This document shows, one piece after another, positions 6,227 through 11,677 of a DNA stretch of 26,102 nucleotides; position 1 is the stretch's first letter; each line of letters begins with the position of its first letter. The position numbers and the translations under genes are program-made. The DNA lies in IMG/VR virus record IMGVR_UViG_2529292998_000006; one strand, written 5' to 3'. Source of the stretch: a virus. Its lineage: Duplodnaviria > Heunggongvirae > Uroviricota > Caudoviricetes. Under the pieces are notes generated by a model, which was given only the letters and a program-made list of their open reading frames with translations, ran no database searches and was not told where the DNA came from.

Positions 6227-6323
6227 CAGTATGGCGTATGATATTTTTGATTTGGTAACTATGTAAATGTTTTTTCAAGGGAAAAATATTAGTTATACAG
6301 CTGATTTGCAGAAGTTATGGCAC

Positions 6324-6353
6324 AAAAAAACCGACTAAGACGTCGGTTTTTTT
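6324..6353. terminator. Bidirectional intrinsic terminator
   Basis: A7, then hairpin CCGAC-TAAGAC-GTCGG, then T7. Sits just beyond the stop of the repressor gene at 6380. Confidence 0.6.
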
Positions 6354-6379
6354 GTTGTGGATGGGGTAGTGAGCGGTGG

Positions 6380-6841
6380 CTACTGGTTACGTTTCTTTAG
6401 TGCCAGCATGTTCTCGAAGGCTTCCTCGTAGAGCTTGTTTAGTCCACGTAGCTGGTTAAGGAGTTTGGCTTTTTCTGACGCAGGTAGAATCTCGAAGAGG
6501 TTAAGTAACTCTGCCTGTTCTTCATTGACCAGCCTCCATCCTTTGCCTGAAAAGTTATCATCATAAGTATCTGATGATCTTACATAATTCATTAAGTCTT
6601 TAAGGTCTTCTCGAATGTCCTCTGGTTTTACCTTTAACAGAGCCGCAAATTTTAGCGCAGCGTCGGTATTTACCGGTATCTTGCCGTTCAGATACTGGCT
6701 AACGGTGCCTTGAGATTCGAATCCCAACAACTCAGCCGCCAGCTCTTGAGTCAGCTTCAGCTCTTTTTTTCTTGCATTCCATGCGGCTTTTAAATTCTTG
6801 CTCGCTTCTGGAGTTGCAATCACTTCGCGTGTTTTTTTCAT
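6380..6841 (-). CDS. XRE-family HTH repressor, DicA/CI-like (153 aa)
   Basis: HTH segment LTQELAAELLGFESQGTVSQYLNG. C-terminal region (EQAELLNLFEILPASEKAKLL...LNKLYEEAF) resembles the recalled C-terminus of DicA. Divergent from a Cro-like gene. Confidence 0.75.
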   Translation of the reverse strand: MKKTREVIATPEASKNLKAAWNARKKELKLTQELAAELLGFESQGTVSQYLNGKIPVNTDAALKFAALLKVKPEDIREDLKDLMNYVRSSDTYDDNFSGKGWRLVNEEQAELLNLFEILPASEKAKLLNQLRGLNKLYEEAFENMLALKKRNQ

Positions 6842-6873
6842 ACATAGAGTTTATTTGTTTTACCAATATTATC

Positions 6874-6918
6874 AAAGATAGTCTGGCTATTGATCTTTAA
6901 AATTAGCGGGGCTAATAT
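6874..6918 (+). promoter_or_regulatory. Putative rightward promoter with overlapping inverted repeat (candidate operator)
   Basis: TTGATC (6890-6895), 17 nt, TAATAT (6913-6918), upstream of the Cro-like ATG at 6949. Inverted repeat AAAGAT...ATCTTT (6874-6879 and 6893-6898) overlaps the -35. Confidence 0.45.
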
Positions 6919-6948
6919 TTGCTCGAGGCATAACGTAGAAGGTTGGCT

Positions 6949-7224
6949 ATGAACTTAAGAGACTATTTAAAAGAGAAACATATCACCCAGCTACAGTTTG
7001 GGAAGCTAACGGGTTTATCTCAGGTGCATGTAAGTCGAGTGCTGGGGGGCTATGAAAGATTCAGCCCTGAAAAAGCATTACGTGTTGCTGAAGTAACGAA
7101 TTTCGAGGTTACACCTCATGAACTCCGGCCTGATATTTACCCGAATCCAACCGACGGCTTACCTGTTGGATTCAAGGCTAACACACCAAATGCATCGGAG
7201 TTGATTCATGAAAATCAGGCATGA
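6949..7224 (+). CDS. Cro-like HTH protein, YdaS/DicC-like (91 aa)
   Basis: ATG at 6949 with a purine-rich SD. The track ORF starts at TTG 6943. HTH-like LTGLSQVHVSRVLGG, then VTPHELRPDIYPNP. Divergent from the repressor. Confidence 0.65.
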   Translation: MNLRDYLKEKHITQLQFGKLTGLSQVHVSRVLGGYERFSPEKALRVAEVTNFEVTPHELRPDIYPNPTDGLPVGFKANTPNASELIHENQA

Positions 7225-7633
7225 GCACATCCGCATGGCGATGAATGCCTGGGCGCATCCGGACGGTGAAAAAGTTCCGGCAGCTGAAATAACCCGGGCT
7301 TATTTTGAGCTTGGTATGACGTTCCCGGAATTATATGACGACAGCCATCCGGAAGCCCTGGCTCGCAATACCCAGAAAATTTTCCGCTGGGTGGAGAAAG
7401 ACACTCCTGATGCGGTTAAAAAAATTCAGGCGTTGTTACCAGCGATCGAAAAAGCAATGCCGCCTCTGCTGGTGGCCCGAATGCGCAGCCACAGTTCAGC
7501 TTATTTTCGGGAGCTGGTGGAGACGCGGGAACGACTGGTGAGAGACGCTGATGATTTTGTCGCAGTGGCGATCGCTGGTTTCAACCAGATGAATCGTGGT
7601 GGCCCTGCAGGAAATATTGTGGCTGTGCATTGA
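7208..7633 (+). CDS. CII-like / YdaT-like regulatory protein (141 aa)
   Basis: Begins MKIRHEHI. Starts inside the 3' end of the Cro-like gene, in the position a CII analogue would occupy. Assignment to the YdaT family is from memory. Confidence 0.55.
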   Translation: MKIRHEHIRMAMNAWAHPDGEKVPAAEITRAYFELGMTFPELYDDSHPEALARNTQKIFRWVEKDTPDAVKKIQALLPAIEKAMPPLLVARMRSHSSAYFRELVETRERLVRDADDFVAVAIAGFNQMNRGGPAGNIVAVH

Positions 7634-7704
7634 CTCGCAATATTCATACCGGATCACTTCCGGCAATTTGTGAGTAAAAAGATTCGGTATCAGAAGAGGT
7701 GAGT

Positions 7705-8745
7705 ATGGCTAACGCCTGGCTCAGATTATGGCATGACATGCCAAATGACCCTAAGTGGCGAACAATTGCCAGGGTGTCAGGGCAGCCAATTGCAACAGTG
7801 ATGGCAGTGTATATCCACCTTCTGGTGAGCGCGTCACGAAATGTCACGACATGTCACGGCGTGTCACTACGTGGTCACATTGATGTCACGACGGAAGATT
7901 TAGCAAGTGCGCTTGATGTGACGGAAGAAGTAATTGATTCAATTTTACAGGCAATGCAGGGGCGGGTACTTGATGGAGATTTAATCACCGGATGGGAAAA
8001 ACGCCAGGTACTGAAAGAGGACAATGGCAACGTTTCACAAACCGCGAAATCCCCGGCAGAGCGCAAGAGAGCGCAGCGCGAGAGGGAAAAATTACGAAAA
8101 CAGAATGAGGGGTGTCACGACGAGTCACGCATATGTCACGACATGTCACGACGAGTCACGACAGATAAAGATACAGATAAAGAATTAAACCCCACACATA
8201 ACGCGCACGTGCGCGAGAGTGCTCCGACCAGTGAGTCGAGTGGTACGCCGTTGCAGGCAGCAGAACCTGCATCCCTGGATGGACTGAGCGAACCCATCGG
8301 GAAATTTCCGATGGTCGATGACTGGCATCCGTCGCCGGATTTTCGACGACGGGCTGCGTTGTGGGGGATGGCTTTGCCGGAGCCGGAATTTACACCTGCT
8401 GAACTTGCCGCTTTCCGGGACTACTGGGCAGCGGAGGGGAAAGTTTTCACGCAGGTTCAGTGGGAGCAGAAATTCGCCCGTCACGTAAATCACGTCAGGG
8501 CGCAGGTTAAGCCAGTCAGCAAGGGGGTAAACCATGCAGCAGCACCAGGTGGCACCGCATCACGGGCAGTTCAGGAAATTCGGGCAGCACGTGAGCAGTG
8601 GGAACGTGAAAACGGATTTATCAGCGACGGAAACGGTCTGGAAGCTGTGGGAACTCATGGGGGAGGTTTATTCGAACCGCTGGACCCAGAAGAACGGGGC
8701 CGCACCTTCGAAGCTCTGGATTGCACAGATTGGCGCGATGACTGA
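7705..8745 (+). CDS. Replication initiator, YdaU (DUF1376)-like N-terminus with DnaT-like C-terminus (346 aa)
   Basis: ATG at 7705 with GAGGTGAG upstream. The track ORF starts at GTG 7699. N-terminus WLRLWHDMPNDPKWRTIARVSGQP. Contains two internal clusters of phased direct repeats. Confidence 0.7.
   Translation: MANAWLRLWHDMPNDPKWRTIARVSGQPIATVMAVYIHLLVSASRNVTTCHGVSLRGHIDVTTEDLASALDVTEEVIDSILQAMQGRVLDGDLITGWEKRQVLKEDNGNVSQTAKSPAERKRAQREREKLRKQNEGCHDESRICHDMSRRVTTDKDTDKELNPTHNAHVRESAPTSESSGTPLQAAEPASLDGLSEPIGKFPMVDDWHPSPDFRRRAALWGMALPEPEFTPAELAAFRDYWAAEGKVFTQVQWEQKFARHVNHVRAQVKPVSKGVNHAAAPGGTASRAVQEIRAAREQWERENGFISDGNGLEAVGTHGGGLFEPLDPEERGRTFEALDCTDWRDD
7831..7892. repeat. Iteron-like cluster 1: six GTCAC(G) repeats at about 10-bp spacing
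   Basis: GTCACG or close variants at 7833, 7843, 7853, 7863, 7874 and 7885. An inverted copy follows at about 7915. Confidence 0.6.
8112..8190. repeat. Iteron-like cluster 2: five GTCACG repeats at 10-bp spacing, then an AT-rich tandem CAGATAAAG x2
   Basis: GTCACG at 8114, 8124, 8135, 8145 and 8155. AT-rich stretch 8161-8190 could serve as an unwinding element. Confidence 0.6.
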
Positions 8746-9199
8746 GCAGCAAATCCGACAGGTCTGCCGCCAGTGCATGGACCGCTGCCGGGCGGGTGAA
8801 ACATGGCCTCCGGACCTGGCTGAGTTTGTGGCGCTGATTTCAGAAAGCGGGGCCAATCCATTTGGCCTGACGGTGGATGCTGTGATGGAGGAGTACCGCC
8901 GCTGGCGTGATGAGTCCTGGCGATATGACGGAAGCGACAAATATCCGTGGCCTCAGCCTGTGCTGTACCACATCTGCCTCGAAATGCGTACCAGAGGGAT
9001 TGAGCGCCAGATGACGCAGGGTGAGTTAAAACGACTTGCGGAACGGCAACTGACGAAATGGGCAAAGCATGTTGGTAACGGGATGAGTGTTCCGCCAGTG
9101 CGACGACAACTGGAAGGGGCGAAACACCCGCAAGGGCCAACGCCAATTGAACGGCTGAAACAGGAATACGAACGCCGGAAGGCAGCTGGTTTTATTTGA
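8657..9199 (+). CDS. Replication protein P-like helicase loader; start uncertain (8534, 8657 or 8738)
   Basis: Segment LWIAQIGAMTEQQIRQVCRQ...PPDLAEFVAL...KYPWPQPVLYHICLEM...MTQGELKRLAERQL is colinear with recalled lambda P. It overlaps the 3' end of the initiator gene. An ATG at 8534 has a good SD (AAGGGGG) but would give a 212-nt overlap. Confidence 0.6.
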   Translation: MGEVYSNRWTQKNGAAPSKLWIAQIGAMTEQQIRQVCRQCMDRCRAGETWPPDLAEFVALISESGANPFGLTVDAVMEEYRRWRDESWRYDGSDKYPWPQPVLYHICLEMRTRGIERQMTQGELKRLAERQLTKWAKHVGNGMSVPPVRRQLEGAKHPQGPTPIERLKQEYERRKAAGFI

Positions 9200-9232
9200 A
9201 TCTGAGAAACGATTTTGTCGGAGGAAATTTTA

Positions 9233-10003
9233 ATGGAAACCGTATTTGACGCACTGAAAGCAATGGGAAAAGCCACATCGGTAGAACTGGCCGCGCGACT
9301 TGATATCAGTCGTGAAGAGGTTCTCAACGAGCTGTGGGAACTCAAAAGAAATGGCGTCGTTGATAAAACTGGTCACACCTGGTTTCTGGCTGGCGAAGGT
9401 GAATCCCGGGTAACCGAAGAGCGGCCAGTAAAATCTGAAGCACAGGATATGCTGACCGGGGAGGTCGAACAAAAAGTTACCGCAGACATGATGATTGAGT
9501 TTATCGGTCAGGATGGTGCTAAAACGTGTGAGGAACTGGCGGGTAAGTTCGGCGTCAGTACTCGCAAGGTTGCCTCCACGCTGGCGGTGGTAACCGCAAC
9601 GGGGCGGCTGGCACGCGTTAATCAGAACGATAAATTTCGTTACTGCATGCCGGGCGATAATTTACCAGCAGAGCCGAAAGCCGCGCTGGTAACGGAAAGT
9701 GATGGTAAGGCCTTTCCTCAGCCAGCAGGTGCTGCGTTACCAGTCCGGGAAGCCGCAACACAGGAAGAAATTAAAACAGAAACTGTGGCGGACATTGTGC
9801 AGCCGTTGCCATCGTTTACCGAAACGCAAGCAGATGAGCTGATTTTTCCGTCCCTTCGCAGGGCAAACCTGGCGCTGCGCAGGGCGAAAAGTGATGTTCA
9901 GAAGTGGGAGCGAGTCTGCGCCGCGCTGCGGGAGCTGAACAAGCACCGGGATATTGTTCGACAGATTACTGATTCTTCCCGCCGTGTTGTATCGGAAAAG
10001 TGA
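9233..10003 (+). CDS. Hypothetical protein with two winged-helix-like segments (256 aa)
   Basis: ATG at 9233 with GGAGG upstream. The track ORF starts at TTG 9215. HTH-like [27 protein letters not shown] and a second [19 protein letters not shown]. Confidence 0.55.
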
Positions 10004-10597: not shown

Positions 10598-11284
10598 ATG
10601 ACCCCAATAAAAATATTTATGACTATTGCTGATTTCAAACGGCCTAAATTGGAGCTCCCAAACGGGGCAAACAAACTACTACTGCACTCTTGCTGTGCTC
10701 CATGTTCCGGTGAAGTGATGGAGGCGCTTCAGGCCTCGGGAATCGACTACACCATCTTTTTCTACAACCCGAACATTCATCCTCAGAAAGAGTATTTAAT
10801 TCGTAAGGATGAAAATATTCGCTTTGCTGAACAACACGGCGTGCCGTTTATCGATGCTGATTACGACACCGACAACTGGTTTGAACGTGCCAAAGGAATG
10901 GAATGGGAGCCTGAGAGGGGGATCCGTTGTACCATGTGTTTTGACATGCGTTTTGAGCGGACAGCGTTGTACGCTGCTGAAAATGGTTTCAGTGTGATCA
11001 GCAGTTCACTGGGCATTTCACGCTGGAAAAATATGCAGCAGGTTAACGAGTGTGGGCGGCGAGCTGTTGCGCATTATCCGGGTATGGTGTACTGGGATTA
11101 TAACTGGCGCAAGCAGGGCGGCTCGTCCCGTATGATTGAAATCAGCAAGCGCGAAAAATTCTATCAGCAGGAATATTGTGGCTGTGTGTATTCTCTGCGC
11201 GATACCAATCTACACCGCAAATCTCAGGGACGCCCTCTTATCAAAATTGGCCAACTCCACTACGGAAAAGAAGAGAAGGAGTGA
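10598..11284 (+). CDS. QueH-like (DUF208) putative epoxyqueuosine reductase (228 aa)
   Basis: Motifs [24 protein letters not shown] and [11 protein letters not shown] match what I recall as conserved QueH signatures. Stand-alone gene between the replication module and hokD. Confidence 0.65.
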
Positions 11285-11521
11285 TTTTATGGATCACCTT
11301 TCTGATTGATTTCATATTGGCGAGGTGACGTGAGTTAAGTAGAATGGCTGCGGGTGCTTGAGGCTATCTGTCTCAGGCATGAACACTGAAAGGCAGATAG
11401 AGAAAAGCCCCAGTTAACATTTCGCGTCCTGCAAGACGCTTAACATTAATCTGAGGCCCAATCTATGTCTCACAAATGTAGGTTAGCCTCTTACGTGCCG
11501 AAAGGCAAGGGGAAGCAGGCT

Positions 11522-11677
11522 ATGAAGCAGCAAAAGGCGATGTTAATCGCCCTGATCGTCATCTGTTTAACCGTCATAGTGACGGCACTGGTAACGAGGA
11601 AAGACCTCTGCGAGGTACGAATCCGAACCGGCCAGACGGAGGTCGCTGTCTTCACAGCTTACGAACCTGAGGAGTAA
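11522..11677 (+). CDS. hokD: Hok-family membrane toxin HokD/RelF (51 aa)
   Basis: MKQQKAMLIALIVICLTVIVTALVTRKDLCEVRIRTGQTEVAVFTAYEPEE. The track ORF from 11465 extends it in frame, which I take to be an artefact. Confidence 0.85.
   Translation: MKQQKAMLIALIVICLTVIVTALVTRKDLCEVRIRTGQTEVAVFTAYEPEE

Follow-up and report, generated by a model that had tools for sequence, protein, structure and literature searches.

In phage lambda the replication origin, made up of iterons and an AT-rich tract, is situated midway through gene O. The O-some assembles on it, and the P protein delivers DnaB (PMC7466680). In phage SPP1, oriL consists of AB boxes and a DNA-unwinding element (DUE) embedded in gene 38, and it is bound by the non-AAA+ replisome organizer G38P (PMC6316719, PMC5737612). 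A third point of comparison is oriJ, the known active origin of the Rac prophage (PMC3945230). Here we describe a locus that shares features with each of these systems. It lies in a 26,102-nucleotide stretch of Caudoviricetes DNA (IMG/VR record IMGVR_UViG_2529292998_000006; “the window” below denotes this whole stretch), which carries a replication initiator gene encoding 346 amino acids (7705–8745, + strand). Two arrays of the direct repeat GTCACG are located inside this gene, and the second of them adjoins an A+T-rich AGATAAAG tract. Judging from sequence anatomy and conservation, we consider it likely that the two arrays and the adjoining tract constitute the cis-acting replication origin of a lambdoid (PPompW-type) prophage, placed within the gene of its own initiator. 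This would assign base-level origin coordinates to a replication module that is present in many E. coli prophages.

Two arrays of GTCACG repeats within the initiator gene

Array 1 (7833–7890, + strand) is composed of six direct copies of GTCAC(G), which begin at 7833, 7843, 7853, 7863, 7874, and 7885 and are therefore spaced by 10, 10, 10, 11, and 11 bp. Array 2 (8114–8160, + strand) is composed of five direct copies of GTCACG at 8114, 8124, 8135, 8145, and 8155, with spacings of 10, 11, 10, and 10 bp. An earlier note on this DNA had reported eleven copies at 10–11 bp in clusters of six and five inside the initiator open reading frame (ORF), and the sequence agrees with that description. The full form GTCACG is present in nine of the eleven copies, and Tandem Repeats Finder (TRF) independently returned period-10 arrays at 7833–7878 and 8113–8163. 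A single inverted core (7918–7922, − strand; GTGAC on the + strand) is found 33 bp past array 1, in codons for D-V-T.

Counted over the entire window, GTCAC is not in excess (44 occurrences against 39 expected). To express its clustering we took the largest number of GTCAC copies on one strand within 60 bp and compared it with 1000 dinucleotide-preserving shuffles. The shuffled maximum was 1 in 222 cases, 2 in 758, 3 in 19, and 4 in one, and no shuffle reached the five copies of array 2 or the six of array 1. The clustering is far beyond chance.

The repeat period of 10–11 bp is not divisible by 3, and the copies of the core between them use every reading frame, giving V-T (GTC-ACG), C-H or G-H (tGT-CAC or gGT-CAC), and S-R (g-TCA-CGn). 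The repeat is therefore a property of the DNA and not of the peptide.

Silent sites are frozen within the repeat cores

Homologues were drawn from phage records, from IMG/VR, and from one genome per species. For the codon test we used 22–23 homologues with GTCAC-type repeats, with a median amino acid identity of 0.70 and host GC contents between 34% (Entomomonas) and 69% (Pseudothauera). Across these 22–23 sequences the ancestral copies of array 1 lie at gene positions 129, 139, 149, and 160, the inverted core at 193, and array 2 at approximately 379–431. Array 2 has three to five copies in every GTCAC-type homologue and abuts the A+T-rich tract. Array 1 has 3, 4, or 6 copies; the window sequence has two more than most homologues, carried by a 21-bp, 7-codon in-frame insertion. 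With arrays at gene positions ~129–160 and ~387–431, the layout, tract included, is kept in Aeromonas and Pseudomonas phages, down to Ralstonia phage Hennie at 37% protein identity. The lambda-like, in-gene candidate origin suggested in the earlier note is supported: its repeats recur at matching gene positions in homologues from hosts of 34–69% GC and down to this level of identity.

Seven conserved degenerate codon columns have their third base in a core. Their mean codon entropy was 0.11 bit, and five of the seven contained a single codon (GTC, GGT, CAC, GTC, and GTG). The other 61 conserved degenerate columns had a mean of 1.49 bit, and none contained a single codon (0/61; Mann-Whitney p = 1e-5). 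In array 1 the codons GCG-TCA, GTC-ACG, GGT-CAC, and GTC-ACG are fixed in 21 to 23 of 23 sequences, and the valine codon of the inverted core is GTG in 20 of 20 homologues. Over the entire N-domain, frozen codons are confined to residues 43–62 and V72. Since silent sites are frozen in the cores only, this pattern cannot stem from recent slippage, from selection on the peptide, or simply from relatedness of the DNA. Purifying selection acts on the DNA sequence of the arrays itself. The earlier note had held that its proposal would fall if homologues lacked the repeats and the window copy were a product of recent slippage; what we found instead were conserved arrays whose synonymous positions are frozen in the cores and nowhere else.

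The module occurs in the isolated or induced phages Evi, Tritos, pAEv1818, and phi1. The record of Pseudomonas phage phi1 (KT887557.1) has a stretch without any annotated coding sequence (L125 2501–3400) in which we found an initiator ORF of 299 codons with 4+4 GTCACG iterons, just ahead of a Toprim-DnaB fusion gene that is labelled “replication protein P” in the record. In Pseudomonas sp. JAI111 (L109), array 1 (gene positions ~149–220) has a 22-codon insertion with more direct cores and several inverted (GTGAC) ones. The loop encoded by array 1, to judge from this sequence, tolerates large changes in length.

The A+T-rich tract and the mosaic joint

The A+T-rich, purine-rich tract ACAGATAAAGATACAGATAAAGAATTAAAC (8161–8190, + strand) is a candidate DUE and encodes D-K/D-T repeats. 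Directly past array 2, TRF identified ACAGATAAAGAT in 1.9 copies at 8161–8183, in keeping with the twofold AT-rich tandem described in the earlier note, and the GC fraction falls to 0.325 in 8160–8199. In all homologues, irrespective of host GC or iteron type, the last iteron is followed by AGATAAAGATAAAGA or AGATACAGATACA. The tract after array 2 (AGATAAAGA or AGATACAGA) is likewise unchanged across all of the core-type branches described below. Many homologues (L004, L088, L098, L108, L113, L089, and L096) have the hexamer AGATCT, which contains a GATC Dam site, inside the AGATAAAG tract or at its end; it is absent from the window copy.

Compared to the phage collection, positions 7600–8183 are approximately 88–90% identical to Evi, Tritos, and vB_EcoS-689R5, and positions 8163–9300 are approximately 90% identical to Rac-SA53, where they correspond to the C-terminal half of ydaU and to ydaV. 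Similarity of the Evi/Tritos type stops at 8183 and similarity to Rac-SA53 starts at 8163, which places a crossover within the A+T-rich tract. The Rac-SA53 ydaU gene, which encodes an unrelated DUF1376 N-domain, has the same ATAAAGATACAGATACAGATCTAAAAGAATTAAACC tract and the same palindrome (see below), preceded by repeats of its own. The tract is thus a shared boundary that joins an origin-recognition module (N-domain and iterons) to a recruitment module (C-domain and loader), and the sharing of the AGATAAAG tract explains where initiator modules are swapped.

Just past the tract is a perfect 14-bp G+C palindrome, CGCGCACGTGCGCG (8202–8215). Related copies with small changes are present in Rac-SA53 (CGCGCGCGTGCGCG; L003 2542–2555) and in Serratia L088. 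The lambda origin likewise has a palindrome past its AT-rich region, and we include the present one in the origin only tentatively. A scan of 6300–9400 for promoters and terminators returned nothing relevant apart from this palindrome.

Both the K-12 Rac YdaU/oriJ locus and Rac-SA53 YdaU occupy the same operon position as the window initiator. Rac-SA53 shares with it a DnaT-like C-terminal half, the A+T-rich tract, the palindrome, and a P-like gene at approximately 90% DNA identity. The ydaU genes of K-12 and Rac-SA53 differ from it in encoding a DUF1376 N-domain, in lacking GTCAC arrays, and in having their own TGTTCAAAC-type repeats. In Rac-SA53 ydaU, TGTTCAAACA/TGTTTGAACA (L003 2420–2475) stand just upstream of the same A+T-rich tract, and K-12 ydaU has a AGATGTTCAA-type repeat with 33-bp spacing (L005 3472–3563). 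These repeats, which occupy an equivalent position in the DUF1376-type initiators, could be the iterons of oriJ. A comparison with K-12 Rac ydaU had been recommended in the earlier note and proved uninformative for the GTCAC arrays: because that gene has a different N-domain and no arrays, the comparison would wrongly have spoken against an origin in the window.

Domain structure of the initiator

The initiator is predicted to contain a winged-helix N-domain (residues ~1–100), a basic helix (117–134), a disordered linker (136–195), and a DnaT-like domain that binds single-stranded DNA (ssDNA; ~200–270). The AlphaFold2 (AF2) model has a mean predicted local distance difference test (pLDDT) score of 67, with a folded N-domain at about 90. 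The N-domain consists of helices 2–14, 16–25, and 29–45, a lower-confidence hairpin (46–62), helices 63–70 and 74–84, and a beta wing; the hairpin scores ~65 between helices of ~90, and the linker at 136–162 scores below 50. On this predicted fold array 1 would encode the hairpin at residues ~43–62 within the DNA-binding domain, and array 2 together with the A+T-rich tract would encode the start of the linker, array 2 itself corresponding to residues 137–152. The earlier note had placed the repeats in a linker that is constrained by the DNA. The constraint is borne out by the frozen silent sites in the cores; the linker location applies to the second cluster and not to the first, which falls in a loop of the folded N-domain.

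A Pfam scan of the whole protein detected DnaT only. The N-terminal 135 residues matched no Pfam family at E≤10 save for a chance-level hit to HTH_Crp_2; Phage_rep_O, DUF1376, and the replisome-organizer families were not among the matches. DUF1376 (PF07120) detects K-12 YdaU at 2.7e-26 and Rac-SA53 YdaU at 5.9e-26. Hence the label “YdaU/DnaT-like” used in the earlier note is right for the DnaT-like C-terminal half, which is common to the window initiator and Rac-SA53 YdaU, and wrong for the N-terminal half. When the family profile was searched against PDB sequences, the DnaT domain alone was matched. In PHROG the N-domain gave weak matches to families labelled “replisome organizer” and “DnaD-like”. 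By fold it is closest to the N-terminal domain of DnaD (DnaD-NTD), its best match, and to a RepA_N plasmid initiator (4pta). As modelled, the N-domain is a winged helix that resembles the DnaD N-terminal domain.

Relatives of the N-domain are found in phages of Pseudomonas, Aeromonas, Ralstonia, Bordetella, Chromobacterium, and others, where the gene carries no annotation beyond “DnaT-like” or “hypothetical”, or none whatsoever. In a Serratia metagenome-assembled genome (MAG; L120) and in Pantoea sp. (L122), the N-domain ends at ~110 residues and is followed by unrelated sequence (YVYYVATTDG...VGISRNPWAR...) without arrays or a Pfam match; these N-domains may have been domesticated or re-used.

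Core types and their linkage to the N-domain

Some homologues carry repeats of another type at these sites. GTAACG(C) cores were found in Enterobacter L111, Pantoea L107, Sphingomonas L089, and Marinobacter L117, and CGAACGC cores in L114, L116, L118, and L121. Erwinia L096 has CGTCACG at 5–10 bp spacing, and phage Hennie has GCAACG cores at gene positions 130/140/151/161 and 401/411/421/431. All core types have the 3′ ACG in common. In each branch arrays 1 and 2 changed core together, and in L111 the inverted core changed as well, from GTGAC to GTTAC. Core type is independent of host genus: Pseudomonas loci have GTCACG or CGAACGC, and enterobacterial loci have GTCACG or GTAACG.

The other components of the locus vary. 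The downstream gene encodes a lambda P-like protein in the window and in Rahnella L093, an IstB/DnaC-like protein in L004, L106, and L111, DnaB in Hennie, and a Toprim-DnaB fusion in phi1. The C-terminal domain of the homologues is DnaT-like in some and has no assignment in others. Upstream and downstream genes also differ among loci of the same core type, being YdaT-like in the window and hypothetical in phi1, pAEv1818, and Hennie. The N-domain is the sole constant partner of the arrays, and for this reason we name it as their predicted binder. Residues ~103–130, around the basic helix, differ systematically by core type (AERKRxQRERE versus AERAKxWR). This segment lies outside the residues encoded by the iterons and is offered as a lead only, a candidate specificity determinant suggested by the alignment.

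The position of array 1 has a further consequence. Because it encodes loop 43–62, any change of iteron specificity (GTCACG, GTAACG, GCAACG, or CGAACGC) necessarily rewrites that loop. One could go on to suppose that these loci form a widespread, apparently undescribed class of origin in which array 1 encodes a surface loop of the domain by which the iterons themselves are read, the loop takes part in recognition or oligomerisation, and site and reader, being one piece of DNA, co-evolve in a single step. We regard this extended proposal as unlikely, and put it forward as a speculation. The four natural specificity classes offer a ready system for the study of initiator/origin co-evolution and of how co-resident prophages avoid cross-firing.

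Proposed mechanism and comparison with known systems

Given the parallels in anatomy to lambda ori and SPP1 oriL, we propose an iteron origin that would work in a similar manner. Protomers of the N-domain would bind the 6-bp cores head-to-tail, one per helical turn and on the same face of the DNA, at array 2 in the linker-coding region and at array 1 some 230–270 bp upstream; the lone inverted core would probably be bound as well. The nucleoprotein complex so formed would be analogous to the lambda O-some or the SPP1 G38P-oriL complex and would destabilise the A+T-rich tract at 8161–8190. The family assignments suggest that the DnaT-like ssDNA-binding domain and the P-like loader would then deliver host DnaB to the opened DNA. 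Array 1 would be an auxiliary part of the same complex, either a cooperative or looping enhancer or a control site.

The lambda origin resembles this locus in several respects. Candidate and model each lie within an initiator gene, and the operon around them is of the same pR type (repressor, cro-like, cII-like, initiator, loader). In each an array of direct repeats is immediately followed by an A+T-rich tract, where the DNA-binding N-domain gives way to the C-domain that recruits the loader; here, as in lambda O, this region is a disordered linker. A P-like loader gene is adjacent, although DnaC-like, DnaB, or primase-helicase genes take its place in homologues. As in lambda and the Shiga toxin (Stx) phages, the number of iterons varies between relatives, extra iterons lengthen the protein, and the N-module and iterons are swapped together. 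There are also clear differences. The N-domain has no detectable sequence relation to that of lambda O, so that the protein is not assigned to the lambda O family, and the C-terminal domain is DnaT-like. The lambda iteron is about 19 bp long, has internal symmetry, and recurs every two turns or so, compared to a 6-bp core every 10–11 bp here. In addition, a second array is present ~230 bp upstream, among the codons for the folded DNA-binding domain.

In sequence anatomy the window resembles SPP1 oriL, whose origin repeats lie within the initiator's own gene and are followed by an AT-rich unwinding element. G38P is a non-AAA+ initiator that passes to a separate loader or helicase, as is proposed here; SPP1 has two discrete bound regions, and the window has two arrays. 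The weak “replisome organizer” and “DnaD-like” profile matches and the DnaD-NTD fold match may point the same way. However, the two binding regions of SPP1 are ~13 kb apart and are separate origins, whereas the arrays here are 230–270 bp apart in one gene. The repeat sequences are unrelated, the phages considered here are Gram-negative lambdoid ones, and the N-domain has no Pfam replisome-organizer match. The RepA_N-type initiators of Gram-positive plasmids (4pta), which also have iterons within the rep gene, resemble the N-domain in fold (~13% identity over the aligned fold), and they belong to plasmids, not phages.

Two other models were compared. An iteron plasmid replicon with control arrays (P1, F, or RK2 type) does not fit, as there is no Rep family match and the unit is 10–11 bp compared to ~17–22 bp; the presence of two arrays is the sole shared trait. 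A ParR/parC-type centromere does not fit either: the neighbours are a repressor, cro-like, cII-like, P-like, DUF1627, and DUF977 genes, with no partition gene.

An origin within its initiator gene is a textbook principle; what seems new in detail is the family, its bipartite layout, and its four specificity classes. Since synonymous changes suffice to destroy the cores, origin function would be cleanly separable from initiator function, which is difficult in lambda.

Alternative explanations

Several observations weigh against the proposal that the arrays and tract are an origin. The distance between the arrays, measured from last copy to last copy, ranges over 249–339 bp, so that their helical phase is not conserved. 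We accordingly rejected a fixed helical phasing between the arrays; the distance tracks the length of the protein, which implies no fixed loop phase. In three Entomomonas/Ventosimonas MAGs of ~34% GC (L110, L115, and L119) only degenerate repeats are present and no clear arrays could be defined, which indicates that arrays can decay or become hard to recognise. The linkage between iterons and N-domain is partly trivial, since the iterons lie within the gene of that domain. No DnaA boxes beyond chance were found near the arrays, which is neutral for a lambda-like mechanism. Lastly, a literature search of incomplete coverage yielded no paper on binding, unwinding, or replication for this initiator family. 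The same search found no description of these iterons, older subscription papers (oriJ plasmids, phage replication modules) being outside its coverage. No origin is annotated at the locus in any record that we examined, and the 11 records from the plasmid collection were mostly prophages on large replicons or whole chromosomes, with no minimal replicon among them.

In the three MAGs the N-domain is retained, as is an extended (GATAAA)n tract of up to nine units (L119), next to just one or two degenerate GAAC-like repeats; their arrays may have decayed, or their core may be of an unrecognised type.

A different division of labour between the arrays has to be considered. Both could bind the initiator while one of them, most likely array 1, has a control function such as autorepression, titration, or handcuffing, and the origin proper would then consist of array 2 and the A+T-rich tract. 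Auxiliary iteron clusters of plasmids P1, F, and RK2 have such a control role. Array 2 alone abuts the tract; array 1 is ~230 bp off and has an extra inverted copy, and the gene is kept even though the number of array 1 copies is 3, 4, or 6 and is expanded further by the 22 codons in L109. Moreover, unwinding in lambda needs just two iterons and the AT region (PMC7466680). On the other hand, Stx phages require extra distal iterons for replication (PMC7466680), and control of copy number would be of little obvious use in lytic phage replication. Array 1 is also as strictly kept as array 2, both at synonymous sites and in every sub-family, although this shows importance and not role. We consider this division of labour the less probable reading. 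It is much less probable that the repeats are sites for another protein, such as a host factor, a Cro/CII-like regulator, or a partition or packaging protein. Centromere-like sites, too, typically consist of two sets of short direct repeats spaced by one helical turn, and parC of plasmid R1, with its two sets of 11-bp repeats, has a geometry similar to that of the arrays. However, the core type switches between elements of one host genus, which makes a host factor unlikely, and loci with the same core have different neighbouring genes. Neither a ParM/ParR-like nor a terminase gene is adjacent, and the arrays always accompany the A+T-rich tract at a domain boundary of a replication initiator.

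The remaining two explanations deny the repeats a function as DNA sites. If they were a by-product of recent slippage or of selection for a repeated peptide, the 21-bp in-frame duplication that gave the window its two extra copies would be a case in point, and it does indicate that slippage alters copy number. This is very improbable as a general account, as it is at odds with a period that is not divisible by 3 and is read in three frames, with silent sites frozen in the cores alone, with conservation over 34–69% GC and down to 37% identity, and with the joint replacement of all copies in sub-families. Even less credible is the idea that the conserved bases reflect mRNA structure or a translational signal of the initiator transcript. 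The constrained sequence is indeed transcribed and translated, but its repeats are direct rather than inverted, folding of both regions on both strands was no better than that of shuffles (z = 0.71, −1.45, 0.53, and −1.21), and the constraint is periodic at 10–11 nt and not in codon phase.

Genomic context

The gene order around the initiator is a helix-turn-helix (HTH) repressor (6380–6841, − strand), a YdaS/Cro-like gene (6943–7224), a YdaT/CII-like gene (7208–7633), the initiator, a lambda P-like helicase loader, DUF1627, and DUF977. The loader gene, the presumed partner of the C-module of the initiator, is 8534–9199 (+ strand) as a long ORF and 8738–9199 in RefSeq, where it is called “replication protein P”. 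It matched Pfam Phage_lambda_P at 5.2e-16 and PHROG 109 (“P-like helicase loader”) at 2.2e-63 over residues 19–221 of the long ORF. From its start at 8534 the long ORF overlaps the final 212 nt of the initiator gene (8534–8745) in another frame. The alignment to PHROG 109 (236 positions) begins at residue 19 of this long form; PHROG 15931 extends over the initiator and the loader protein alike. It is possible that the two genes have a long out-of-frame overlap, or that a start (or end) has been mis-set.

The window is DNA of E. coli. A 1.7-kb region of this module is 100% identical in E. coli ABU 83972, NCTC86, and other strains; in ABU 83972 it belongs to a lambdoid prophage that adjoins an ompW remnant. 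Part of the region was matched in 3188 of 5426 complete genomes, and most of it in 658. Farther downstream in the early region of the prophage, right after the DUF977 gene, is a gene for QueH epoxyqueuosine reductase (10598–11284; Pfam 1.1e-65), an unusual cargo gene for tRNA modification. It is followed by an ORF for a Hok/Gef family toxin (11465–11677; Pfam 3e-23), similar to hokD of Qin/Rac-type prophages.

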